NCBI RefSeq assembly: GCF_006345805.1
Contig: NC_043002.1
Location: forward strand, 82,212,001-82,276,000
Length of the DNA: 64,000 nt
DNA from: Octopus sinensis
Lineage: Eukaryota
Direction: 5' to 3'
Positions 3,733 through 63,686 of this stretch are shown here, piece after piece. How positions within the stretch are numbered: position 1 is the first letter of the stretch; each line of letters opens with the position of its first letter. Both the position numbers and the translations under genes were made by a program. The notes under the pieces are model-generated. The model had not been told where the DNA came from. It searched no databases and saw only the letters and a program-made list of their open reading frames with translations.

Positions 3733-4389
3733 CACACCACACACCTAAATGGAGATTATTTTAACAAAGATTATTTATTTCTTAAATAGAGATGCCATTT
3801 TTCCAGAATTAGCCAGAAATCCAGAATTTTATGAATTCTGGAGAAAATCAGCTTCATATTATGGGTGAGCATGAAACTTTTTGAACTATTCCACTTCATC
3901 CAGTGTTGGCATTGTACACCACCACACCCAAAATAACACACTTGAAAAGCCTAACAAAATCAGTTTTGTTAACCTTCACCTCCCAATTATTTGTAGCTCT
4001 GACCAGCTTAGCAGTTTGCGTAGGGGTCATTTGACTAGTTATTTTACCTTGTTTAATTTTTTTTGTTTGATTATTTAATTATTTTTTTGCTCAACCCCCT
4101 CCTTCCGCTGTTTCCTCAGCATGAACTCAACTGATTAATTATGCAAAATTAATTATGATTAATTATGAATATTTAAAATACACCATTAAAAGTGGCATCT
4201 CTTCTAAGATTTTGTAAATATTTAGTAATGTTTGAGTTATTTTCTCTGTTTTGGTTTTGCTTTGTTTTCTCTCCCCAGTCCAATCTTGTTTCATTTCATC
4301 AGTGTTACTAATATTATTAGTTAACCCTCTCCCTATCTGGGTTAATTAACCCTTGGTTTAACAAAAAAAAATTTTTTTTTCAATGTTCA

Positions 4390-18170: not shown

Positions 18171-19244
18171 CTCCCAGTTTTTGTCTTTTTAAAAAAAAAA
18201 ATTCTTTAGTAATAATAAAAATAATAACAGTAATAATAATAATAATAATAATAACAAGAGGAGTTAGCATGTAGAATTGGTTGGTGGTGGAGGAGTGTAG
18301 AGCAGGCAGCCTTGATCTTGTTTTGACATCTTTAGAAACTATAAAACTTAATGCTGCTGCCATTGTGGTGGTGGAGGTGTTGGTGGGGGTGGGGTGCAGG
18401 AGAGGACAGAAGGAGGGATTTGGGGTTTCTGGGGACATTTATTCAAGCATAGGGAACATAAATGTACCTTGCATCAAGGTGGTAACAGCTGTGGCAGGGG
18501 TGGGTGGGTTTGTGTCAGTAGCCGTATTGGGGGTGGTGGTGGTGATAATCTGTCACTGTATCATGTTTTATACTCTATTGACCCCTACCTTGGACAAGGA
18601 CTACTCTGATAGATTCTCCTCAGTATTCCCTCACCCCCTCTTTTTCTCTCTTTCATACACACACACACAGTTCCCTTTATCACTTCCTCCCTTAACACAC
18701 TGCTCTTTATAGTCTTTCTCTCTCTCTCTCTCTCACTCTCTCTCTCTCATTTCCAGAAGTAATCCCTAGGCATTTATTGCCACCAGCATTGCTGTCCCTT
18801 TCAGTGCATCATCCCTCTTGTTATTCATCTGTATATGTCATTATATTTAAGTGTTGTTTGGTTATTTCAAGAAAAAGAAGTAAAAAAAAAAGCAGTAAAA
18901 AAAGAATAAAAAATATATTCCTTCTAAATTGTTTTGCAAGAGTCATTATAACCCTGTCTCTTAGTCATTATAAACAGATAGGAGTAGCAGTCAAACGCCA
19001 TTAAAAACAAACAAAAAATGGAAAACAAAGCAAAACTCTTTTATATACAAGAAGCACAAGGGAGCCTGCTAGAAATAGCAGTCAAATATTTTCTCAAATC
19101 ATACTCTACTACTTGCATATTGAAGATTCACTGATAATGTGACCAATGTGGCCCTATTAAAAATTTATCCCTTTTGGTACCAGCCCACCTGTGATCACCC
19201 CTGGTTCTGTGAAACAGTCTTCCATTTTTTAAAGGTGATCTAAA

Positions 19245-20207
19245 ATGCAACTTCATGATTCCACGCTCATAGAACGTCCGGTCCTTATTAGCCAAAATCT
19301 GAAGCAACTGCAACTTCAGGTCATCATCTTTATTGAAAGTTTTACCATTCAAAGAATTTTGCAACCTTTGAAATAAATGGTAATCTGATGGTGCAAGGCT
19401 AGGGCTATATGGTGGATATGACATCACTTCCCAACCAAACTCCAATAATTTTTCATGAGGTTGCAAAGATATGTGTGGTCTAGCGTTGTCACGGTGGAAC
19501 ATGATTCCTTTACGATTTGCCAATTCTGGCCGTTTTTCTTTGATAGCTTCCTCCAGTTTCATTAGTTGTTGACAGTAAACATCTGATTTGACCATTTTGT
19601 ACCTTGGAAGCAGCTCAAAATACACAACTCCTTTGTAATCCCACCAAATTGACAGCATGACCTTTTTTTTTTATGCAATTCAGTTTTCGATGTGGTTTGT
19701 GCTGGTTCGTTATGCTTGGACCATGATTGTTTTCAATTGATGTTTTTGTAGACAATCCATTTTTCGTCACCAGTGATGATTCATTTAAAAAAACATTGAT
19801 TTCATTGCACAGTTATATGACAATCAGCTTCAGTTATGGCTTTGATTTGGTCATCATCAACTTAAGTGGGTAGACCAGAATGTTGGTCATCTTCAAGTGT
19901 GTTCTGTTAAGCAATCAACACCATAAACTTCACATATCTTTTTGTGAGCCTCAGCAGATTTTTTGCCTTTATGGGAATAAAAAGCAAAATCTGGTGAAAA
20001 TGTTTGTTTTTACACTCCATGTTAAAATTGACACTGAATTAACAGCTGTAAACAAAATTACGTGCAATTTGCTTCTAAAGTAAGCTAAAGGTAATGGCTA
20101 TCAAATGTCAAAAGGAAAAACATCATAACATTGACAAAAGTCATTAAAAAAAAATCATAACTCTATCTATTTACTAAAAACGAAATTACTTTCTTGCCAA
20201 CCCAATA
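19245..20207 (-). mobile_element. Decayed mariner transposon (Hsmar1/cecropia-like), internally deleted and 3'-truncated
   Basis: Minus-strand ORF 19128-19658 has the mariner motifs SIWWD, RKGIMFHRDNARPH and YPPYSPSLAPSDYHLF. Upstream, IITGDEKWIVY near 19780-19750 is followed by a stop. Terminal TA plus TTGGGTTGGCAAGAAAGTAATTTCG at about 20207-20181 resembles the Hsmar1 TIR. Confidence 0.93.
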
Positions 20208-31530: not shown

Positions 31531-32385
31531 CTTCAACAGCTGTTGACAGTCAAAAAACAAGTTGAAGTGCTGTTTACCTGAGTTGGACAGCACTGCTGTT
31601 GAGAGAACGAGAGACATAGAGATAGACAGACAGACATATATACTGTCGTCTTAGGCTGAATCTATAAGAAGGTCATAAAAGTTGATAAGTGAATGATTCA
31701 ATCATTAAACCTGTTTCTTTTAGTCGCCCTGTCTCTTCTCTGAACTAGCTAACTATATAATCTTGCCATCCTGGACCAATTTGTCTGCATTCACCATTCC
31801 TCTTCTGGTCACTTTTTCTGTATCATATCTCCTCAAAATTCGTTCCTTTGCTCATCTCTTTTTTTTCCCCTCTTTCCTGCTGATGTACAGGTGTTCATTC
31901 TGAGCATTAATTGCATCAATTTCATTTGTGGGCAAAGTCTTTTCCTCACCTCCCTTTCCTCTAATAAGTATCCAATTAATATATTTTAACCACGTTTTCT
32001 GGTTTGGAGGTTCCACTATGTGACACACCTTGGTGTCTTCTGCTGGCCAAGGGTTTATGGGTTGATTGGATGGATGGAAATTGAAAGAAGCCTACCACCT
32101 CTGTGTGTGTGTCAGTGTCTTGACATTATTGATAATTATAAAATGCACATTACCATCATGCAAGCAGTGTCCTTTGTTTCAAATTTCTGTTAAAATATTC
32201 CTGGCAATTGGGAAAATATTGCTTTGATTGGTAACAGCTGAGGATTGGTGGCAGGAAGAGCATCCAACTGCTGAAAATCTACCTCAGTGAATTCTGTTTG
32301 ACCCAGTTGTTGCTGCTGTTATTGATATTGTTGCTGTTCATTTTAGATATTAAAAATGTTTCTTTTCACTTTTTTTCTACTTCAG

Positions 32386-32572
32386 GCATAGTTTGCAAGA
32401 ACAGTCAAGTAGCCATGCGAGTGAGGCTCAAACAGCTGGTGATAAAAAGAAACCTCATATAAAGAAACCATTAAATGCATTTATGTTATTTATGAAAGAA
32501 ATGCGGCCAAAAGTAGTAGCAGAATGTACATTAAAAGAATCTGCAGCAATAAATCAAATTTTGGGGCGAAAG
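32386..32572 (+). CDS. TCF: TCF/LEF transcription factor, exon encoding the N-terminal half of the HMG box
   Basis: Acceptor ttttttctacttcag|G and donor AAG|gtaagt. Translation [62 protein letters not shown] contains the diagnostic TCF/LEF motifs [11 protein letters not shown] and [16 protein letters not shown]. 187 bp, phase 2 to phase 0. Confidence 0.97.
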
Positions 32573-33276
32573 GTAAGTACTTTTTTTGTTTCTTTCTTAA
32601 TCAAATATTTATCATTTCTGGATAGGACTTCACCTAACTTTTCAAAACTGATCAATTGCTGATAGGTCCTCTCTCGACTCAGCTCTGATAGGATTTGTCT
32701 CAAGTTAAAGAAGTTCTGATAGGATTTAAGATGAAAAAGTTCCTATAGAATTTGTTTTAAAGTTACAGATGTTTTAACAGGACTCCTCTTATTAGATCTG
32801 AAAGATGAAAAATTTATGATAGGACTTGCTTCAAAGTAGTGTAAAGTTTTTAAGATAATTCCTTTTAAAGTTAAAGAAGCAATCCTTATTTAGTAGTTAC
32901 TATTTTTTTTTCTGGCTTAAGTTCAATTAAACTAAAATGTTCATTATTAAAAGTGATGTATCATCCCAAATATTAAAATAGTTCTTTGTGGTGTGTAGGG
33001 ACAAATTGGGGCCTTGTGAGGGGAATCAACCATACTTTGATGAGAAGGCCAAGATTTGTTGAAAAAATGCCAAAGCAATAATGAAGGAAATTTGTTTTGT
33101 AGATTATTGTTGTTTGTCTCGATAGAGTGATGCTCTCTGTGAGTTTTAACCATCGCAGTCGGTTGAAAAATTTGACTTCATTCTAAATCAGTGTCTCATC
33201 TAATCAATTAGGTTTCTGGTGACTTGATGATATTTTGAAAAAAAAAAAAAAACCATATTTTCTTTCTTATCTTCAG

Positions 33277-33439
33277 TGGCATGCTTTAACTAAAGCAGAG
33301 CAGGCAAAATATTATGACATGGCTTGCAAAGAGAAAGACTTGCACATGCAGCTCTATCCTGGCTGGAGTGCCCGCGATAATTATGGCAGATATGCCAAAA
33401 AGAAAATCAAACGAGGGAAGCAGCAGTCTGAAGATACAG
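33277..33439 (+). CDS. TCF: TCF/LEF HMG-box second-half and basic-tail exon, copy A (divergent)
   Basis: Acceptor ttttctttcttatcttcag|TGG and donor ACAG|gtatga. Encodes [54 protein letters not shown]. 163 bp, phase 0 to phase 1, no stops. Confidence 0.9.
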
Positions 33440-33616
33440 GTATGAATAATGGTAATGAATGGCACTGTTTTTAATGAACTTTTTTTTTTCTCCTTTTCAG
33501 TAGAAATTGCTCTGTGTGTGACTTTTTTTTTCTTTTTCATTTTATACCTGGAGATGTGGCTTTTTTCAGCAAACTCTATTGGAAACTATATACGTTTTTG
33601 TTATTTTAGATAACTA

Positions 33617-33649
<33 letters not shown>

Positions 33650-34408
33650 CTTGGCACTGTTGAACTGGATTATTTGCTGTGTCTAGTTCAATACATTTAT
33701 CAGTTAATTGTGCCTTTTATATCTGTGATAATTTTAAAATAAGTACCAGCAATATACTCAGGTCAACTCATTAAAAATGTGGCCATTCTCTTAGTCTTGT
33801 GCCTGGTCAGAAGACAATATGACATCCCAAGTTGTCTTCCAAGCTTTTTATCTCTCTCTGTTTTTGTGATTTTATGTCACTTTGTTAGACAAGTCTTTTA
33901 ACTGTACTTGTTTACAACTTCATAGTCAATTTGGAATTTATCATCCTCCTAATTGCCGGTATTAATAAAATGCCAATGGATGATTTGCTCTTCAAGTCCT
34001 ACTAGGATCAACTTTAAATTTCAACCTGCTGGGGAACAAGTACCAGTGATGTACTGAGGTTCTTTTTTTTTTTTAATCAATTGTTCCCTCATCCCCAAAT
34101 CCTTAGATTTGTGTCAATACAATAAGAAATCATCATCATCACCATTATTATTATTATTTATTGTTGTAGATCATGTCAAAATCAACTTTGCCTTTCACCC
34201 ATCAAGGGTGATAAAATAAGATACCAGTCACGTACTGGTGGTGGGGTCACTGGTATCAACTAACCCTCACTCCTCAAAAATTGCTGGCCAGGTGCTAAAT
34301 TAGATGCAATTTTATATTTTTATTATCATCGTCATCATTGACATCATCATCATTATTATTATTATTATTATCATCATCATTATTGCGGATAAAGAAATCA
34401 TTATTACG

Positions 34409-34444
<36 letters not shown>

Positions 34445-34865
34445 ATATATTATATATATAATATATATATTTTCTTTAAATATTTTTTTTTTTACCTTTT
34501 TAATTCTGTCAGAAAAAAAGCTATTAAACAAATTTGCTCATCTCCATGCTTATATAGTCTTGCTTCACTTCTTAATTGTATTGATGGAATTTGATAGCTA
34601 AAAAGCAAAATATTTTGATGCAACTGCAGCCATCACCACCACCACCACCATCTAAGCCCCCCCCCCTCTTTCTATCTAATCTTCTCAGTCAGTTACATTA
34701 CACCTAATCTTTTTTTCCCCCCTGCCAAATATGTGTTGTTATCATTATTATTACTATTATTTTATATAAGCAATACTTGTTTATTATATACACCAAGTAA
34801 AAATATTTTTGTGTGTGTGTTTATGTTTGTTTGTGCTAGCATGTATGTGTGTGTGTGTGTGTGTG

Positions 34866-34920
<55 letters not shown>

Positions 34921-35274
34921 GTGCATGTGTATCATCATCTTCATCATATGTCCATTTTTGTACCATGCTGGTATGGGTTAGCTTGGTTTCACAGCATTTC
35001 TTTTCCATCATTTCACACATGCACACACACAAAGCAACAGCATGAACTTGTCCTACCCTGTTACTATGAACAACATGTTATTTTTTGCCTGGTTCTTATG
35101 ACTGGATGTCCTTTTAATCACCAACCGCTTTCCAATATCAACTGGGCACATGTTGTTGTACCACCAGCACTAGAAAGGTTGTCCTCAAAAAGACTTAAGA
35201 ATTTTCACTATTCTAAATTATTGCCATTCTTTTCTTCCTTCCTGGTATATCAAATCCAAATAGTGCAGTCGAGT

Positions 35275-35630
35275 GGTTAATAATATAGTTGAATGTTTAA
35301 TAATATAGTTGAATGCTTACTAATATAACTGGCTGTTCATGCAGCTGAATGTTAAATGATATTGCTGACAATGTTTAATAATGTTGCTGACTGCTTAATA
35401 ATGCAGCTGACTGCTTAATAATGAGTTGAATGTTTAATAATACAGATGGCTACTTAATAATGCAGCTCAATATTTAAATACACAGTTGTACCTCAATTGT
35501 TAATAACATAGCTAAATATTCAGTAATGCAGTTGATTGCTTAATAATTCTGCTGAATGCTTTATAATGCAGTTTAATGTTATATAATACAACTGAATGTG
35601 TAATAATTAGAGTTAATTGTATTCAATAAT
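35275..35630. repeat. Degenerate 20-bp minisatellite, about 17 units
   Basis: Consensus TTAATAATGCAGCTGAATGY repeated in tandem. Confidence 0.85.
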
Positions 35631-35989
35631 ACAACTTTACATGTTTAAATCCAAATATTAGGTAACAATATCTTATCTCCTTTCATGTCATGTTCACACT
35701 GATATGTTGTGCTGTAATTTCCATTAAGCAAAGCTTTAGTTTCACTTTCTCTCCCTCTGATACCTACTGTTTCTTTTCTCAACAAAATTATATTCACTTA
35801 TATATCTATAGGTAGATAGATAGATGCTTATGTGTTGAGGATAGTGTTGTTCTTCATCCCCAAATGCAGAGCTCAGTGTCTCATCAGACAGTGAACAGCT
35901 CTAAAAATGATATATATACTTAAAATAGGTTTTGTGAGGTAACATCATTCCCATGACAAGATCTTTTGTTCTCTGTCTGTCTATCTCTG

Positions 35990-36029
<40 letters not shown>

Positions 36030-38729
36030 CATATATATATATATATATAATCATGCATCATTTCTTTTCTATGGTGATATGGGTTGGACAGTTCTCACAG
36101 ACCTTCATTTTTTCATAACACACAGCATTAGAAAACCTGTCCATCCATGTTGCTAGTTTCTTCAGCTCTTTGTGTATGTTTATGTGTGTGCACATGTAAG
36201 TGTGTGTATTGTCTTTATACATAATTGTATATACACAGAATTTTTCTTGTCATCCCAACTTACTTGGGAATTATTGCATGCATAGATTTCAGCAACCACA
36301 AGTTTCTCTCTATACCTGTTGAATTCCATCCATTTGAGCTTCTATTTAGAAAGGTTAATTAAAATTTACATCCTTATTTCAATCAATTCCTGCTGCTCTT
36401 AGATACACATGTATACACATTCATACACAAATATTCATTGTATATTTTTGTGATTTAAAAAAGAAAATGAATGAATATAAAAAAAGGGGGAAAAACCTGT
36501 GTAAATGTGATGGTTATTGAATGTAAACAAATCAATCTTCTGAGAAAGGTAAGACGCTCAAGTGTTGTTTCTAGCTTAAAACTTCTGCTTGTTATAGTCT
36601 ATTCAGCCCTAAATCATCCCTGATTTAACAGGCCTATTTGATCAAAGGCATTCCGGCCATGACCACCAAGTCTTTTTCTTCTCCGAGCATATAGGACTGC
36701 ATTATCCAATGTGTGCGTTCTTTTTTTTTTTTCTATGATTTAGGTGAGGGTGTAATGCGAAGGGGGAAGGGCGATATCTGGCTGCCTATTTCTAGCAGAT
36801 CAAGCAACCACATAGGTGCACTCTTCTTTGGCTCAACAACTTGTGTTAGATGTGATAAGTGTTCAATGTTGACGTGGACTTTTAAGAGTGGATGGTGTAT
36901 GTTTCATTGACAGCCATGTATTTTATATATATATACACGTATATATATATAAAATGTTCAGTGTTGGGTTGTCCAATAAAGACAATTCTTGATCAATTTC
37001 ACACTAAACAAACTCTATAGTCTCTTTTCTGTAGCAGTGTTTACTCTCCAGGACCAATATGTAGACTGCAACTGCCAATATTTTTTTCAAGATTATTTTT
37101 TATATACTGATTTCAAAGAAAAAATTTTACCTTTGTTTTTTTTTTTTTTTTTTTTTTTTTTTTCCTTTTTTTGATTTTCAGTAAAGCATTTCAAATCTGC
37201 TGCTACTACTACTACTACTACCATGTGTAAATTTTTTGAACTTAAAAAAAAAAATCAAAATATATATTTTCATTTTTCAGTAATTTTTAAATCCTCAACT
37301 GCTGTTTGTTTTCCCACTTGTGTATGTACTTATACTCTGTGGCCAGTATTCATTCTTTCTGGAAGAAGAATTTAAAAACAAATTTTCCAGGTTTCAAAGA
37401 TTGTTTGTGGATTATTATTATTTCTTTTAATTTTGCTTCTTTTTTTAACTTTTTTTTTTCTAATGTCCTCTTAAGCAATTTGATTTGAACTGATTTACTT
37501 TTTCACATCATTACCACAGAATGGAATTTCTGTATATTATTCACCTCCCCACCACCACCAAAAAAAAAAAACAACAAAAAAAAACCTGCCATGAAAAATG
37601 TTTATCAAAATATTGACATCCCTTATAGAATTTTTCTGGAAGGAGAAAAAAAAAACGATTAAGTGCCTTTTTTACCTTTATTCTTGTATTTGACTGTTTT
37701 CATGTCTGCTGCTCTTGCTTTTTTTTTTCTAAATGGTTACATTTGTTATGTTATCAATCTGCCCTCTTTTGTGCCTGTAACAAGTCTTTATTCTGCAAAA
37801 TATTATCAGCTTGTCTCTGGAAGTTCATTCTTCAGAGGCATCAATCTTAGAAGCAAGTTTCTCAACCGTCCAGTTACAAGTATCCCTCTTGTGTTAATGA
37901 TACGTGGCAGGTATGACAAACAACTACTACTATTACTGTTATTTTTGTTATTTATATATATATATAATTTTTTAACAAATGATTCCTCCACATTTCAATA
38001 TTATATTAAAACATCTACAGAACTTAGGACACATCTATAGATTTTAGGAAAATATTTATAGAGCTGAGGAAAAGCTAACAGAACCAACTTGATTTGATTT
38101 GTTCTTTGTGGTCATAAATATATATTAATGGATTTGATTAGTGTTGTAATTAAATTCCATAGTGCCACTATTAAATTTTACAAATTATGTGGCATCATCT
38201 AAAGAAAATGGCCTGTTTTATAAGAGCATTTCTACAGAGAACTCTTTCGATTAAAATTTTTGCTATAACATTCAAGCTGCCCCCACTCTTGCTGAGTAGC
38301 TGATAGCACCCAATTAGCTACTCCATATAAACTCATTGTCTTTAAAATCTTTTTTTCTTTTTTTTTTTAAGTTGGAGACTCAAAATATTATCATAATTTA
38401 TTTCCAAAACGTAAAATGTGTTACTGTTTTTGTCAGTAAATTATATTATTTTATAAGTAAAGTAGAGGCGACACCAAATTTTAAAAAGTTGATAGTAGCT
38501 TTTCCTTATTAAGCTGTAAGAATTCCAATTTCATTGATAAACAGAAGCATTATGGGATCAAATGTTAGCAATTAGTGTCTGATCCAATTAATCTTACCTT
38601 TAATTATTAACCATTTATTAATATAATGGAGAAAAATGCTTTCATAATATTTTGTATTGTTAATAATGTGGTTCAGAGCTATCTTAGACTTTTATACTTC
38701 CTAGATTTTAACCATCTATTGTTAACAAC

Positions 38730-38957
38730 TTAACCCTTTAGTATTCAGATTACTCTGTCAAATGTAAAGCCTGTTTAATTACATTGTTTTTAATTAATTG
38801 TACAGCATCTTGTAACTCTGAGATTTTTATGATGTCCCTGTTTAATTTTAGAATGACTTTGTAGGGTAGGTGTGAGAGGTCAGAGCTGACTGGTTTGAGC
38901 ATAAAACAAGAAGGCAATTCTGGCCTGATATGGCTGATTTAAACACTAAAGGGTTAA
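38730..38957. mobile_element. piggyBac-type MITE, family b (other copies near 20777-21003 reversed and 60620-60828)
   Basis: Inverted termini TTAACCCTTTAGT...ACTAAAGGGTTAA with TTAA target site. Confidence 0.82.
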
Positions 38958-39524
38958 ATAAAGAAACTGAATGTTCGATTTTAGTAACCCTACAGACTTT
39001 TTGTGTGGTCTATAGTTCTTACATTATAAAGTTTTTGTTTATATATAAACTGTTTTGAAAGTTGGTTCTAACTCCTTAGTTTGCTGGGCTTTTTCCCTTT
39101 TCTGGTTCTTTTCTCTCTCTCTAGTTTGAAGTATGGCTTGCAATATTTTTATACTCTTTTAGACTAGAATGGCCATTTACTAAACTTATAGATTAGTTAT
39201 TAGCTTACGAAACATTATCTATTAGAAAATAGACTATCAGGAGCTAGATTTAGGAATGATGTATGAGTGATATATATATATATGGATATGCATGCTTTTC
39301 ACTCTCATATATTATTATTATTATTATTATTATATTATTATTATTATTATTATTATTATTAGAGAAAGAGACAGAGTGAGAGAGAGAAGCAGACTGTTAG
39401 TTGGTTGGCAGAAATATTTCTGCATGACATCAGTTGCAGCAACATTGATCAGTTTTAATATTGAGACATTTGTATGAGTGTCTGAAATAGTGTTTTATTG
39501 CTAAAAACTGTTTCAAATAGCAAT

Positions 39525-39608
<84 letters not shown>

Positions 39609-40784
39609 TCATAATTACATTAAAGCTGAGTGAGGTAAAAAAAACTTGTCTGTGAAAAATTTGGATAATGTTTTTATAATAGGGTTTTGAAACATCACTA
39701 ATATGTTGTTAGTTTAATATCTTATTTACCTATAGACCATAGAATATTGTAATAATATTATAATAATTTCATAAAATAAAATATAAATGCTATAAAACAG
39801 AGAATTAGCTTTACTGAATAGAAGTTTTTAAAAATGCTATATTTTCTGTAAGTGAATAGAGAAATAGAAACAATATTGTTACTAAAGAATTGTTCAGATT
39901 CTTGTCATTTCACTCTGTTTTCATTTCATTTAGCCCTTTCGTTACTATATTTCTAACCAAAATACACTCCTTCTGTGTTCCAAGTTAAATTCTAAAATAA
40001 ATTCTCTTACCCATACATATATTTTTGAGGGATACAAGCTTATAAATAAGAAGACAGACTAGACAATTATTGCCTATAGTTTTCCTGTGACTAATCTGTA
40101 TTGCCTAGTGTTTGGTCTGAAGGATTGGAGTGAGTAGAATAGTTTTAAAAAATATGTTTAGGAGTTAACAGATCAGTGACTGTTGGATGGAAGTACGATT
40201 TGTTACTCTTTTATACAATATTGGTTCTCAGCCTTTTGTAGCTTAGAAATCTATTTTCACAAAATGGTGTTTTACAAACACCCTTTAATTTTATGCAGTA
40301 GTTTGTTACCCTTATTTGCTTATACAGTACTAGTTTATCCAGCAATTTGTACGAAGTACTGCCCTGCCTGTTTGATTTTTTTATAGAAATTACTAAAGGT
40401 GAGGACATATATAATGAAAATATATTTGGACCTTGGCACATTGTCAGTCATGCTTCTGCTCACTAACGACATGATGTCCTGTTCATATTTTAATTCTGAT
40501 GAGATTTGGGTGGGGTGGGGGGATTCTTTTTTTGAAGATGTGTCTAAAATATTAGTATTATATGTGGTTTAAATATTTTATTTCTTAGAAAAATCATGAC
40601 CCCTTTAAACACCCAAAAGCTTATAGTGTTCCACTGATATTTGCTGCTGCCCTGTAAGCTCATAGTCCCTGCCATCATCACTACCACCACTAACAGGCAG
40701 CAATATTGCACTGCCCTGGTTTTAAGAACCACTGCTTTTAGATCAGTGATTTAAAATCTTCAGCAGGCTAAAACTTCTTTTTTC

Positions 40785-41012
40785 TTAACCCTTTCGCTAC
40801 TGTATTTATTTTGAGATGCTCTGTGTTTCTTTCAATTACTTTAAATATAACAAAGAGTTTAGTAAAATAACTTAGTTATCACTCAGCTAGTGTTAGGAAC
40901 ATAAATTGTGGCTATGGTTTGGTGGAAGATTTTAATTCAAAACTTATGAGAACAAGACATTTGTATTCAGAGCCAGAGCCGGTTTCAGCCAGGTTGGTAT
41001 CAAAAGGATTAA
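40785..41012. mobile_element. piggyBac-type MITE, family a
   Basis: TTAACCCTTT...AAAAGGATTAA, homologous to 1320-1522. Confidence 0.75.
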
Positions 41013-44000
41013 GTTGTACAGAAGTAGGAAGAGTGTTGAAGTCATTGAGTCTTCACCATTTTGGCTATATCTGTTATAGATTTATGCATAGAAGGAACTA
41101 TTATTGCATTAGCTAGTTGTTTAAAAAAAAAAAATTATAAGTGTAGGTCACATCTGCTGAGCAGTGAATTATATGTTATTAAGTTGACCAGTTTTCTATC
41201 TCTTGCCAATTGCAAATATTTGGTTTAAAAACATTAAAGCAATAATAATGAAACAAATTGCTGATGTATAATTATGAAAGCAATTTTGTTATTAAATGAA
41301 GCTAACATGAATTTAAATCAATATTTTTTTTTTCATCATGACATCTTTTTCCCACACATGCTATTCTACTTCTTAGTTTTTTTCTTCTTTTTTATTTAGT
41401 CAGAAATCATTTTTTATATTTTATTCAGTCATTGGATAACCTCACTTGGTTCTAGTGAAATACTTGAAAGTAGCTCTCACATTCAGCATGTTTAGTTGGT
41501 AGAGTCCATTACTTGACAACATCAGAACCCATAAATGATAAAAGACTAGGTCAGTTTTAACCAGATTAGTTGTGATCTGTCAAACCGTACATTGCTTTTC
41601 ATGAATTATCATTAGTAGTAGTTATTGCTTTTAGTAAACATTTTTTTGTGTGCTGCTATTAGTTGAAAAGATCTTCAATACAATTTTTTTTTCAAGAATC
41701 TTAGTCTTGTTTCAATGCATAGAGTAGAATTTGATTTAACTAACTTGTCCTAAGTCTTCTTCTCTTGTCTACTTCTACCTAATGTATCCTTTACTGCCAT
41801 TTTGCAGCACTTTCTCACAAAGAATGCTTAGTCTGTCTATTTTATATCACAAATGGTGAACAATAATCTAGTTGGTCACCGATCCCTAACTGGCCAATCT
41901 CTTGTTCACTGCATTTATAACAGCAAGAGTAACAAAGGAGTTTCTGTGACTCTTATGAATTTTGTTCCAACATATATATATATATATATATATATGCTGA
42001 TGATTTCTGAAAAGGATAAAATAGTGCTATGTATAATACCACATAGAAAGTGCAAGAACTTTGTAATAATTAAAAGCAAGTAAATAAATATGTGAATTTT
42101 ATGCATCTTTTTTCTTGTAATTACATAATTTCTAATCATGTAATAGCAGCCATGTCTAGGGAAACCATGTGTTTATAAGTACATGGATGGATGGCCTTCT
42201 GTCAGCTTCAATGATGAGGCTTCAGTTGTTCAGTCGACTGAATTTCTTGCTCATTGGATTAGTGTGCAAGTGGCTGGGCATTTCCAAGGTACTAATACTC
42301 TTAATGTAATTCTGAGGCAGAATAAGTTTGGCATTGAGCATGAAAAGGATGCACTTTTGAATTACAGGTACAAACCATTTGACGGGCTCTTACACAGCTT
42401 GTATCCAGTTTCACTAAAATGTTGTGACTTGATTTGAGGGCATAGAAAATGACAATTGCCCTAGGTATCACAGTGCCATAAAACCTGAGATCTCATACCA
42501 CCCCCACCCCCACTGGCTTCTGCACAGTTTCTGGTGAAATCTACCAGATTTCACCCCCAGAAGTATTGATCAGTCTGAGGCTGTGGTAGAAGACACTTGC
42601 CCAAGTTGTTGCACAGCAAGATTGAACTAGGAACCACATTTTTACTTTCATTATATCTCAGCTCTAGTGTAGTGTCTACATTAATAATTTGGAATTTTTA
42701 GTCATTTCCTTCACTAACTCATGCTTAATCTTTCTCTGAGGTCCACATTCTACCTCCTTTCTCATCTTTTGGTTTATAGTTAAAGTTAACATTATAAGCA
42801 AGATTTACTGTCCTGTTGAACTTCCATACTAACTCAGTTGACTATCCAGCTAATAATGACTACATTCTACTGATTAATTAGCAGTTTTAACATAATTAAA
42901 CTTGATGTTGGTAATTAAATAGTTAATATTAATAATTTCACCAAGGTACCATGTAATGGGACTGAACCCAAAATGATGCAGTTGGAAAGTGGAATTCTAA
43001 AACACACAGCCATGCCTGCTCTTTATATTACATTCAGCTATTGACTTTTAATATGAATCATAGTTGGGTGATTGTTTTTTATCTATGATAAATGACCTCA
43101 CCCTCCTGAAAATACCAGCATCTACTTTATTTCACACTACACAAACATATATACACACCACTTCCGTGTTTATTCCCAATCTGATTCATGATGATGCAGA
43201 CCAAGTTTTAATGACTTTCTGAATAAGCTGCTTTTCGTCTCTGATACCTATCTACCACCTAACACACAATATTCTTCTCTTATGTTATTGAATATTTAAC
43301 CTCAACTACAACAGATCTGGAACCTTTATGTTTTAATATAATTTTACTTAAGAGGTTTCATAATAAAACAGAAATTGTTCATAGATTATGACTAAATTCA
43401 ATAAAGATTTGATTTGGAAACAATTGTCTCTCCTACTAACTTGTTTTAGAATTCAACAAGTACCAGACTGGATGTTTTAATGTATCTAGTTCAATGCCTG
43501 AGTGATTCTGCAGGAAACCTTATGGAGTTGATAAAATAAGTACTTGAAATATATTAGCTTTATTTAATCACCCCACCTCACTCCTATTAAATTGGTCTTT
43601 AAAATAAATCTATATTTTTATGTTTAATTACTGACTAAATATTGCCATATATTTAATATATGGTAACCCCCACAGACACACACACACGTGCACACTTAAA
43701 CAAATTTAGTGTCTGTTTACCAAAATAAAATTAATCAGGATATTAAGTAGAATCATTTATGAAACTGTTTCATTCCCCAAAAGACTAAACCAGATGTCTA
43801 AAAAAAAAGTTTTTAAAAAAACCCTAAAAAAAAAACAAGTATTTTTCTAATTAGGAGTAGTTTTGCGCAGCTGAACTATTTTTAGTAATATGAAACCAAT
43901 TTTGGTATAAAATTTAATATTTTGATACATTATATTTTCTCTTGTGTCCTTTTTATTAGATATTCTATTGGTTGATGGAAGGGGGATATAAGACATTTAT

Positions 44001-44178
44001 TATCCATTCAGTAAACTTCCCTGTAATTTAGTAAACCCACATTTAAAATTTGGGTCTAAAAACTGAATATTCCTCTTCTTTTTTTTTTACATTCTAAATA
44101 TTGTTTAAAATATAAGCGTGTTATGTTGAAGTTGTGTTGTTGGGGGGTCTGCTTAAACCAGTGTTTATTTCTCTCCAG

Positions 44179-44341
44179 TGGCACGCATTAGATCGAGCTG
44201 AACAGGCCAAATACTATGAGATGGCTCGCAAGGAAAAAGAGTTACACATGCAACTATACCCTGGTTGGAGTGCACGAGACAACTATGCCTCACATACAAA
44301 AAAAAAGAAGAGGAAAAGAGAAACAACAGGTGAGGATGAAG
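44179..44341 (+). CDS. TCF: TCF/LEF HMG-box second-half and basic-tail exon, copy B (canonical-like)
   Basis: Acceptor tttatttctctccag|TGG. Encodes [54 protein letters not shown]. Possible donors after 44329 (ACAG|gtgagg) or 44341 (GAAG|gtaaaa), both phase 1. Confidence 0.95.
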
Positions 44342-55749: not shown

Positions 55750-55791
55750 CTAAAGCCAGATTACCATGGTATTTCAATGATGTTACCACAG
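55750..55791 (+). CDS. Candidate 42-bp in-frame cassette microexon of TCF between basic tail and C-clamp
   Basis: ctaat branch-like motifs, then tgtctttctcttatttcag| and a strong donor ACAG|gttagt. Phase 1-1, open reading (A)KARLPWYFNDVTT. Confidence 0.6.
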
Positions 55792-58162: not shown

Positions 58163-58234
58163 ATTCTATAACTGCTGAAGGAAGCTCTGGCGGGGATTCA
58201 TATCAGTGGGAAAGGACGAGGCCATCTATTATTG
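58163..58234 (+). CDS. Candidate 72-bp in-frame cassette exon of TCF
   Basis: Acceptor ttttcttatgtgcttcag| and weaker donor TTG|gtatat. Phase 1-1, open reading (D)SITAEGSSGGDSYQWERTRPSII. GC-richer than its flanks. Confidence 0.45.
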
Positions 58235-63613: not shown

Positions 63614-63686
63614 AATGCTCAAACCCAAAGAAATGCAGAGCTAGATTTGGTCTTGACCAACAGAATCAGTGGTGCAAACCATGCAG
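63614..63686 (+). CDS. TCF: TCF C-clamp (CRARF) exon, too short for the ORF track
   Basis: Acceptor ttctgattccag|AA and donor TGCAG|gtaggg. Phase-1 translation (E)[23 protein letters not shown](R) is the C-clamp motif. 73 bp; entry phase matches both HMG second-half exons. Confidence 0.96.

Follow-up and report, generated by a model that had tools for sequence, protein, structure and literature searches.

One TCF gene with two alternative HMG exons

A single TCF gene of Octopus sinensis contains two exons, A and B, for the second half of its HMG box, and it probably splices in either one or the other, giving rise to two protein forms that are likely to read the same core Wnt element and to differ in their grip on DNA, in bending or in nuclear import. 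The gene spans the window (the whole stretch of DNA analysed here, 64,000 nt; Table 1), where a search for the two halves of the HMG box returned one first-half match and exactly two second-half matches (scores 103, 99, and 89), with all remaining matches scoring below 1; no third or decayed HMG exon copy was found within these 64 kb. HMG1, the first-half exon, is the sole host copy in both the genome search and the window search. A and B therefore sit in one gene, composed of one first-half and two second-half exons, and the concern of the initial annotation that they might belong to separate genes is not borne out. The octopus HMG domain matches the LEF-1 HMG structure (PDB 2LEF) at E = 1.1e-39 and capicua or Sox only at 1e-13 to 1e-10, which marks it as a TCF-type box, and PF00505 is complete whether exon A or exon B is used. 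PF08347 is not listed for the octopus models, the corresponding part of the gene lying upstream of the window.

Table 1. Exons of the octopus TCF gene, with positions counted from the first nucleotide of the window.
Exon	Content	Position	Strand	Evidence
Optional coding exon	75 nt, phase 2-2, 5' of the HMG box	3790..3864	+	tblastn 100%
HMG1, common exon	N-terminal strand and helices 1-2, main base-reading residues	32386..32572	+	
Exon A, divergent copy	Helix 3 and basic tail	33277..33451	+	Models; contigs in runs X13 and X5
Exon B, conserved copy	Helix 3 and basic tail	44179..44341	+	Models; HMG1>B loose ends in runs X1 and X6
Linker exon	42 nt, phase 1-1, accepts A or B	55750..55791	+	11/11 O. 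sinensis models
Optional linker exon	72 nt, phase 1-1	58163..58234	+	Skipped in models X6, X7, and X8
C-clamp exon	CRARF motif, as in invertebrate TCFs	63614..63686	+	In frame with 8/8 single-copy combinations

Both A (33277-33439) and B (44179-44341) measure 163 nt and have CAG acceptors, GT donors, and phase 0 to 1; our remeasurement agreed with the initial annotation on these points and on the spacing of about 10.7 kb (10,739 nt) between the copies. The GT donors of both exons are intact as described there, but a second donor of A, at 33451, had been overlooked. Each exon in fact possesses two donors separated by 12 nt. Those of A lie at 33439 and 33451 and yield exons of 163 and 175 nt; those of B lie at 44329 and 44341 and yield exons of 151 and 163 nt. 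All four are used in public O. sinensis models: the short form of A in models X3 and X7 and the long one in X1, X5, and X9, the short form of B in X4, X8, and X11 and the long one in X2, X6, and X10. The direct splicing of A and B to 63614 that had been assumed needs correction, as the junctions A>63614 and B>63614 are absent from all 11 O. sinensis models; the next exon is the 42-nt linker, followed by the optional 72-nt exon, whose inclusion alters the spacing between HMG box and C-clamp by 24 residues, and only then by the C-clamp exon. At the 5' side, the splice from the 75-nt exon to 32386 appears as a loose contig end in run X5, and this exon is missing from model P0125. Past the window, two alternative terminal exons follow the C-clamp exon (L089:544-603 and L089:6472-6765).

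Exons A and B are long diverged and constrained

Over residues 1-36, A and B are identical at 31 of 36 positions, and 17 of these 31 residues are encoded by different codons, in full agreement with the original count; over their full length, 36 of 54 residues are identical. Across codons 1-36, synonymous sites are saturated (pS = 0.805) and pN is 0.075 (Fisher p = 5e-12; pN ≥ pS in 0 of 2000 bootstrap replicates), and the introns flanking the two exons share only two BLAST matches, of 21-29 nt. The saturated synonymous sites, a pN far below pS, and the unrelated flanks uphold the proposed old duplication under purifying selection: A and B are long diverged, both intact, and constrained. They are homologous, share the same phase, are similar in length, and lie in one gene, as tandem duplicates do.

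Since the flanking introns are nearly devoid of BLAST matches, an assembly echo is excluded, as had been concluded at the outset from the codon differences. More generally, it is extremely improbable that the pair is an artefact, be it an assembly duplication, a pseudo-exon, or the remnant of a second gene. The assembly does hold two further TCF-like loci, but each of these is a complete, compact gene with introns of 25-26 nt and lies on another contig, and the saturated synonymous divergence, the unrelated flanks, the spliced contigs, and the conservation in O. bimaculoides (below) all speak against an artefact. As candidate host paralogs of TCF, the two extra loci were rejected because they look like parasite contigs, and a further match (C13) was set aside because its box is of the Sox type.

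Splicing evidence for the two isoforms

Among the public O. sinensis models, which probably go back to the assembly used here, or to one almost identical to it, and do not count as independent evidence on the DNA, A is included in 5 of 11, B in 6 of 11, and both in none. A is also present in both O. bimaculoides models, with 57 of 58 residues identical, and B in all five O. vulgaris models. The octopus A and B isoforms are, in other words, already annotated. Contigs from sequencing runs that we guess to be RNA, none of them being recorded as such, add one contig for each splice joint. HMG1>B is seen in run X6 (188 letters aligned, 194 loose) and in run X1 (28 letters loose), and HMG1>A in run X13 (a GT..AG joint whose shorter side has 23 letters) and in run X5 (16 letters loose), the two HMG1>A joints falling short of our 31-letter bridging rule; in run X5, a contig also joins A (33451) to 55750 without B. 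Each copy is used alone in these contigs, as HMG1>B omits A (X1, X6) and A>55750 omits B (X5), within an aligned contig stretch that excludes exon B, such that A>B joins are not visible in it, and with the tendency of contigs to drop rare forms. The lack of cover over A in X6 is given no weight, and the small shares of matching words in organisms D-F do not enter this evidence. The alternative use of the two exons by splicing, as first proposed, is supported by the five A and six B models and by contigs for HMG1>A and HMG1>B, and the scenario in which no reads enter exon A gives way to the contigs of X13 and X5.

It is improbable that exon A chiefly yields C-clamp-less or unproductive transcripts, through read-through into the intron or joint inclusion of A and B, and so serves as a dosage or repressor switch. 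Contigs of runs X1 (33264-33565) and X13 (33468-33565) do span the intron just 3' of A, the frame past A stops 11 codons beyond the first donor, and in Platynereis a C-clamp-less form is made by retaining the matching intron (PMC5996498). However, run X5 shows A spliced on to 55750, the C-clamp exon is present in all five A-type O. sinensis models, and X1 also covers the upstream intron, so that pre-mRNA or DNA explains the cover in this run. A separate observation in the same contigs, an A>G difference at 33436 in X1 and X13, was considered as RNA editing and rejected: in X1, many intron positions also depart from the window sequence, and the O. bimaculoides models carry the same Ala.

Reading frame and a proposed mutual exclusion

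All eight combinations with a single copy remain open through the C-clamp, while all eight that include both A and B stop within B, at least 128 nt before the next junction; by translation, joint inclusion causes a frameshift and a stop 8 codons into B. When A, B, and the 72-nt exon are all skipped, the frame stays open within the window but is shifted. Regulated splice-site choice would be the primary selector of A or B, and, given the frameshift in A+B transcripts, nonsense-mediated decay likely backs up exclusivity by removing the double transcripts.

Several known routes to exclusion were considered. Exclusion by RNA structure between docking and selector sites is of the Dscam type. In stretches of about 200-480 nt by each exon, pairing under a 5' docking model was matched by 16 of 20 shuffles; under a 3' model, a crude shuffle was as good in 1 of 20 cases, but dinucleotide shuffles equalled the pairing in 15 of 60 and real introns used as controls in 18 of 40 (single sequence), and docking/selector pairing is thus no better than controls in these stretches. 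Of 891 inverted repeats, the 25 longest are distant from exons A and B, and those whose sequences were inspected are AT microsatellites. Steric exclusion does not fit an intron of 10.7 kb between the copies, which is not very short, a distant branch point does not fit an AG 19 nt upstream of the B acceptor, which leaves no long AG-free zone, and U12/U2 exclusion does not fit donors that are all of the U2-type GT class.

Differences between the A and B protein halves

According to the accessible text of PMC11458547, LEF-1 contacts bases through N10, R20, S32, N36, D76, and Y78 of the box and through R82 and K86 of the tail. The positions of N10, R20, S32, and N36 fall in the shared HMG1 exon, and those of D76 and Y78 are identical in A and B; the two forms would bind the same core Wnt element via the shared HMG1 residues. 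In the tail, by contrast, the LEF-1 motif K78-R84 is matched at 7 of 7 positions in B and at 3 of 7 in A (ungapped alignment), the R82-equivalent position being altered in A. Exon A also encodes C17, which replaces a near-invariant helix-3 arginine, Y39, and I44, each found in 1 of 110 distinct second-half segments and all retained in O. bimaculoides. Because only A alters the tail motif and exchanges the near-invariant helix-3 Arg for Cys, B appears to keep the ancestral LEF-1-like role and A to represent the modified form. The TCF/LEF basic tail doubles as a nuclear localization signal (PMC4963812, available part), and, judging from sequence, the tail difference likely tunes DNA binding or nuclear import; the A and B forms would then differ in DNA grip, bending or nuclear import.

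We consider it rather doubtful that A and B are biochemically equivalent and that A is kept simply for its use in some cells, where it has to remain functional. Of five substitutions in the helix region, four are conservative (D/T where the helix begins, R/K, and E/D twice), the core contacts are shared, the tails are similar in charge (net +7 in A and +6 in B over residues 37-48), and the net charge of helix 3 is equal. Yet the unusual C17, Y39, and I44 are conserved in O. bimaculoides, the R82 equivalent is altered, and alternative HMG exons recur in many lineages, all of which speaks against this reading.

Duplicated HMG exons in other animals

The usual description of invertebrates is of a single TCF whose HMG domain does not vary. 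On its own, the octopus case adds an already annotated pair of isoforms to a common class; the interesting part is the recurring protostome pattern. If alternative HMG halves recur in most protostomes, knock-down, reporter, and binding work may cover one TCF form only, and the question of context-specific Wnt outputs from a single TCF would become testable. The octopus pair would lend itself well to such a test, its two domains being identical outside helix 3 and the tail.

A second-half exon pair at the same boundary is present in at least 27 of the 120 proteins listed; of the two-copy proteins among these matches, 23 are from insects, 2 from crustaceans, 1 from Mya, and 1 from elsewhere, in a search whose two-copy query makes two-copy models rank high. 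As in the octopus, insect and crustacean pangolin/dTCF has one shared first-half exon, a boundary after ...ILGRK/R, and duplicated exons for helix 3 and tail; unlike in the octopus, where A and B both keep the post-helix motif, the second insect copy departs from it. Drosophila pangolin has alternative HMG exons; Drosophila is absent among the matches listed. Protein models of clams (Mya, Dreissena, Mercenaria, and Ruditapes), scallops, and the nemertean Lineus likewise combine one first-half sequence with two to three alternative second-half variants per species, with three in Mya, Dreissena, and Mercenaria against two in the octopus. The suggestion that novelty might be limited to the cephalopod case thus has to be narrowed, since bivalves, a nemertean, and pancrustaceans multiply the same exon in public models.

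Two first-half variants occur among the models listed for oysters, Haliotis, Pomacea, Batillaria, Elysia, Biomphalaria, Physella, and Owenia. Annelids, oysters, and many snails thus double the front half of the box and octopus, clams, scallops, a nemertean, and pancrustaceans the back half; no lineage among the matches listed doubles both. Amphioxus and hemichordate models listed have one helix-3 sequence per species, and the parts of the literature consulted report no alternative HMG exon in deuterostomes. The Tcf of Platynereis dumerilii resembles that of the octopus in combining alternative HMG exons with variable C-clamp ends in one gene (PMC5996498). The HMG exon duplication that the initial annotation mentions for an annelid Tcf exists as such, but it concerns the 5' HMG exon, encoding the start of the box, which is single in the octopus, and not the 3' exon duplicated there. 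Similarly, the view that isoforms stand in for vertebrate paralogs had already been put forward for Platynereis, whose isoforms were proposed to offset the lack of paralogs and to show minor differences in how they bind DNA (Zidek et al. 2018, PMC5996498, as far as its text was available). Vertebrate TCF7L2 shares with the octopus gene an exon duplication inside the TCF DNA-binding module, in its case of the C-clamp exons XII/XII' (CRARF/CRALF; PMC9303524, available part) rather than of the HMG box. In our literature search, which covered few subscription papers, duplicated second-half HMG exons did not come up for cephalopods, bivalves, or insects, although they may have been published; the accessible parts of PMC5393890, PMC6783274, and PMC9133022 do not mention them.

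It is tempting to speculate, and at present only tentatively, that the TCF HMG box is a convergent exon-duplication hotspot across protostomes and that A, with its unique Arg-to-Cys change and its remodelled major-groove/NLS tail, confers distinct targets or import, splicing thereby standing in for the TCF/LEF paralogs of vertebrates.

Origin of the octopus pair

The octopus duplication may have arisen apart from those of bivalves and pancrustaceans. A precedes B in the octopus and a B-like copy precedes the K6/G37 copy in the Mya model, and position 24 is Met in both octopus copies and Leu (11/12) or Val (1/12) in clam segments; we count the reversed order and this lineage-wise sorting for a separate origin. 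Alternatively, one ancient second-half duplication in a mollusc or protostome ancestor would make A the ortholog of the clam K6/G37 copies, with many lineages having lost a copy, a history that we regard as possible but somewhat unlikely. In its favor, A shares K6, D14, D21, and G37 with the Mya/Ruditapes variant, the A/B synonymous sites are saturated, and a 47-column tree constrained to join A with the clam K6/G37 copies is not rejected (AU p = 0.58) and scores 2.8 lnL better than the free search. The AU test, however, also returned p = 0.52 for a cephalopod clade and p = 0.49 for A with insect copy 1, and with p = 0.49-0.65 over all four groupings tried, the 47 columns have no power to place A. 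Besides the copy order and position 24, a single ancient event is opposed by the recurrence of K6 with G37 in worm loci L005-L019 and in Petrolisthes copy 1, and by the single second-half variant, among the models listed, of chiton, Patella, Mytilus, oysters, Lingula, Owenia, and gastropods.

A metagenome scan over 80 loci, most of them short, contained two second-half exons in none and two first-half exons in one (L026). No A-like sequence occurred among 23 short-protein matches, in a database of cluster representatives where a missing match does not imply absence. All five decapodiform-like proteins (two partial ones from Sepia, one from Doryteuthis, and two others) are of the B type, and the squid copy and exon B share 98% identity across 47 columns.

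Two constrained second-half HMG exons in a single TCF gene

The TCF gene pairs one shared first-half HMG exon (HMG1) with either of two second-half exons, A and B, which encode helix 3 and the basic tail; we conclude that A and B are real, expressed and constrained alternative exons. In agreement with the initial annotation, both are 163 nt long (A ending at 33439, B at 44341), preceded by CAG and followed by GT, with a spacing of 10,739 nt (~10.7 kb as first given) and 31 of 36 leading residues identical, 17 of them through different codons. Over codons 1-36, Nei-Gojobori counts gave pS 0.805 against pN 0.075 (Fisher p = 5e-12, with the order reversed in 0 of 2000 bootstraps), while tail codons 37-54 are under looser constraint (pN 0.46), and alignable flanking intron sequence came to only two short matches. 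Given the saturating pS with low pN and the non-aligning intron flanks, A and B are an old duplication on which purifying selection acts, as had been proposed.

The assignment of both exons to a single gene also held: profile searches recovered a single first-half HMG exon and two second-half ones in the window, and genome searches placed one first-half exon on the TCF chromosome, the other hits being a Sox-type box and two TCF-like genes carried by small contigs. Dicyemids are parasites of cephalopods. The two small-contig genes, one spanning ~1.4 kb, have introns of 25 and 26 nt at the HMG junction, and the surrounding 10 kb hold no AT microsatellites. According to PMC13644364, dicyemids and myxozoans are the only animals for which introns of this class are reported. 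Their size and the host range of dicyemids suggest that both genes are probably co-sequenced parasite DNA on dicyemid contigs, which could pass wrongly for octopus TCF paralogs.

Features mapped in the window and related loci in the assembly
Feature	Location	Strand	Basis or remark
Optional exon	3790-3864	+	mapping of models to window
Mariner/Tc1-type transposase fragment	19128-19670	-	inside 28-kb intron (PF01359, E = 8e-20)
HMG1	32386-32572	+	mapping of models to window
A or B, alternative	33277-33439/33451 or 44179-44329/44341	+	mapping of models to window
Linker exon common to both paths	55750-55791	+	mapping of models to window
Optional linker exon	58163-58234	+	mapping of models to window
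C-clamp exon	63614-63686	+	followed beyond the window by either of two terminal exons
Compact TCF-like genes (2)	L003/L090 (G000:C8901), L004/L091 (G000:C8597)		intron position as in octopus TCF

Isoform models and transcripts

Public Octopus sinensis TCF7L2-like models match exon A at 100% identity. Among the 11 models of this species, A occurs in five, B in six and both together in none; these models probably stem from the same or a near-identical assembly and thus add transcript-guided structure, no independent DNA. Models of O. bimaculoides carry A (2 of 2; identical at 57 of 58 residues) and those of O. vulgaris carry B (5 of 5). The junctions from A or B directly to 63614 that had been proposed are wrong, since the mapped path passes through the common linker exon first. 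Each copy has twin donors 12 nt apart, the longer form adding four residues, and that of B recurs in Sepia models; together with the optional 72-nt exon they make the HMG-to-C-clamp linker variable. In two B-type models, P0129 (X11) and P0132 (X10), the C-clamp is replaced by a short alternative terminal segment, which was not found on the + strand of the window.

Contigs from 4 of 24 listed sequencing runs (four studies, two organisms, RNA nature guessed) were compared over 32200-33600. Each splice event is seen in one contig, and contigs do not report expression levels or tissue bias. Among the matches listed, HMG1 is followed directly by the opening letters of B in runs X6 (188 letters aligned, 194 loose) and X1 (28 loose). 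It joins A in X13, across a GT..AG gap whose short side has 23 letters, and in X5 with 16 letters, both anchors being below 31 letters. The single X5 contig with this junction leaves A at 33451 and enters the 55750 exon, skipping B, and the junction letters in the contigs agreed with the window on direct check. An A>G difference at 33436 (X1, X13) replaces Thr by Ala at the final codon of short A, matching the O. bimaculoides models, and may be an allele, a species difference or editing. Contigs of X1 and X13 also cover the intron stretch 33440-33565; read-through past A would terminate the protein 11 codons on, resembling the C-clamp-less Platynereis form.

A probable route to mutual exclusivity

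All four A/B exon forms have a length of 3n+1, and the frame through the C-clamp is kept in all eight single-copy combinations. All eight A+B combinations reach a stop codon 8 codons after entering B. Skipping both exons shifts the frame as well: translation then ends inside the window if the 72-nt exon is included, and otherwise the frame remains open though shifted. A premature stop far enough before the next junction usually triggers nonsense-mediated decay (NMD), and A+B transcripts, whose stop lies at least 128 nt ahead of that junction, fit this rule. Neither steric nor U12/U2 spliceosome exclusion fits the window sequence; a candidate docking site before 55750, which 1 of 20 crude shuffles equalled, was equalled by 15 of 60 and 18 of 40 proper controls. 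Together with the frame effects, this points to a two-step arrangement in which regulated splice-site competition would probably choose A or B and NMD would probably filter wrong combinations.

Predicted consequences for DNA binding

Aligned to LEF-1 (2LEF), the second-half exon begins at chain residue W41. LEF-1 makes base-specific contacts through box residues N10, R20, S32 and N36, a K7-D76 bridge and tail residues Y78, R82 and K86 (PMC11458547), the last two of which we read as chain rather than box numbering. Equivalents of N10, R20, S32, N36 and K7 lie in the shared HMG1, and D76 and Y78 are identical in A and B. On the chain reading, the K78-R84 stretch of LEF-1 is reproduced in full by B (7 of 7 positions), while A shares 3 of 7 and has Lys in place of R82. 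C17, Y39 and I44 of A (positions within the exon) each occur in 1 of 110 distinct second-half segments compared, namely A itself. Excerpts of the literature describe the tail as a nuclear localization signal that also stabilises binding (PMC4963812, PMC4999783), and the HMG region as a weak Groucho site (PMC2701438). Against a large effect speak the conservative nature of four of the five substitutions in the helix region and the similar charge of the two tails (+7 in A, +6 in B); our best prediction is that the core motif would stay the same and that affinity, bend, flank preference or import would be altered.

Origin of A and parallels in other animals

B has changed little (98% identical to the squid copy), and in a tree of 54 rows and 47 columns A sits on a long branch whose placement is not settled. 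AU tests rejected none of the groupings of A with the clam K6/G37 copies (p 0.58), of a cephalopod clade (0.52), of A with insect copy 1 (0.49) or of all clam copies together (0.65). A may be an ortholog of the clam K6/G37 copy, with which it has four residues in common; however, K6 with G37 recurs in worm loci and a crab copy, and both residue 24 and the order of the copies in the Mya model speak for independent duplications. On balance, we lean towards a separate origin of the octopus duplication.

Drosophila pangolin is reported to have a second-half HMG exon pair. Public annotation already contains the A/B pair, and other protostomes show parallels: among 120 proteins listed for a two-copy query, 27 have both copies (23 named insects, 2 crustaceans, Mya and 1 other). 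Counted in protein models rather than by genomic checks, the matches listed include three second-half variants in Mya, Dreissena and Mercenaria, two in Ruditapes, each of three scallops and Lineus, and two first-half variants in oysters, Haliotis, Pomacea, Batillaria, Elysia, Biomphalaria, Physella and Owenia. One variant per half was seen among them in Mytilus, chiton, Patella, Gigantopelta, Littorina, Lingula, Tubulanus, Watersipora, amphioxus and hemichordates, and none of the species listed showed variants of both halves from one gene. The initial annotation had suspected, from an annelid and Drosophila, that novelty might be limited to the cephalopod case. Protein models bear out second-half pairs in insects and crustaceans, with no Drosophila protein among those listed, but the annelid differs: the alternative exon reported for Platynereis Tcf (PMC5996498) is a first-half exon, whereas in octopus the second-half exon is duplicated. 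Our literature search found no published account of second-half pairs, and the available parts of PMC9303524, PMC9133022, PMC6783274 and PMC5393890 do not mention them. The more striking joint reading, in which protostomes duplicated one or the other HMG half many times over and exon A of octopus is functionally distinct as well, seems to us rather doubtful.

First-half copies stand in tandem at locus L026 (5431-5800). There and in annelid, oyster and gastropod models (P0157, P0072, P0372, P0189, P0453), the variants are often of HIKK vs YVKK type, a hint of a single ancient duplication in lophotrochozoans, absent from octopus. In amphioxus models (P0432-P0445), small splice shifts vary the first basic-tail residues, a further means of altering this tail.
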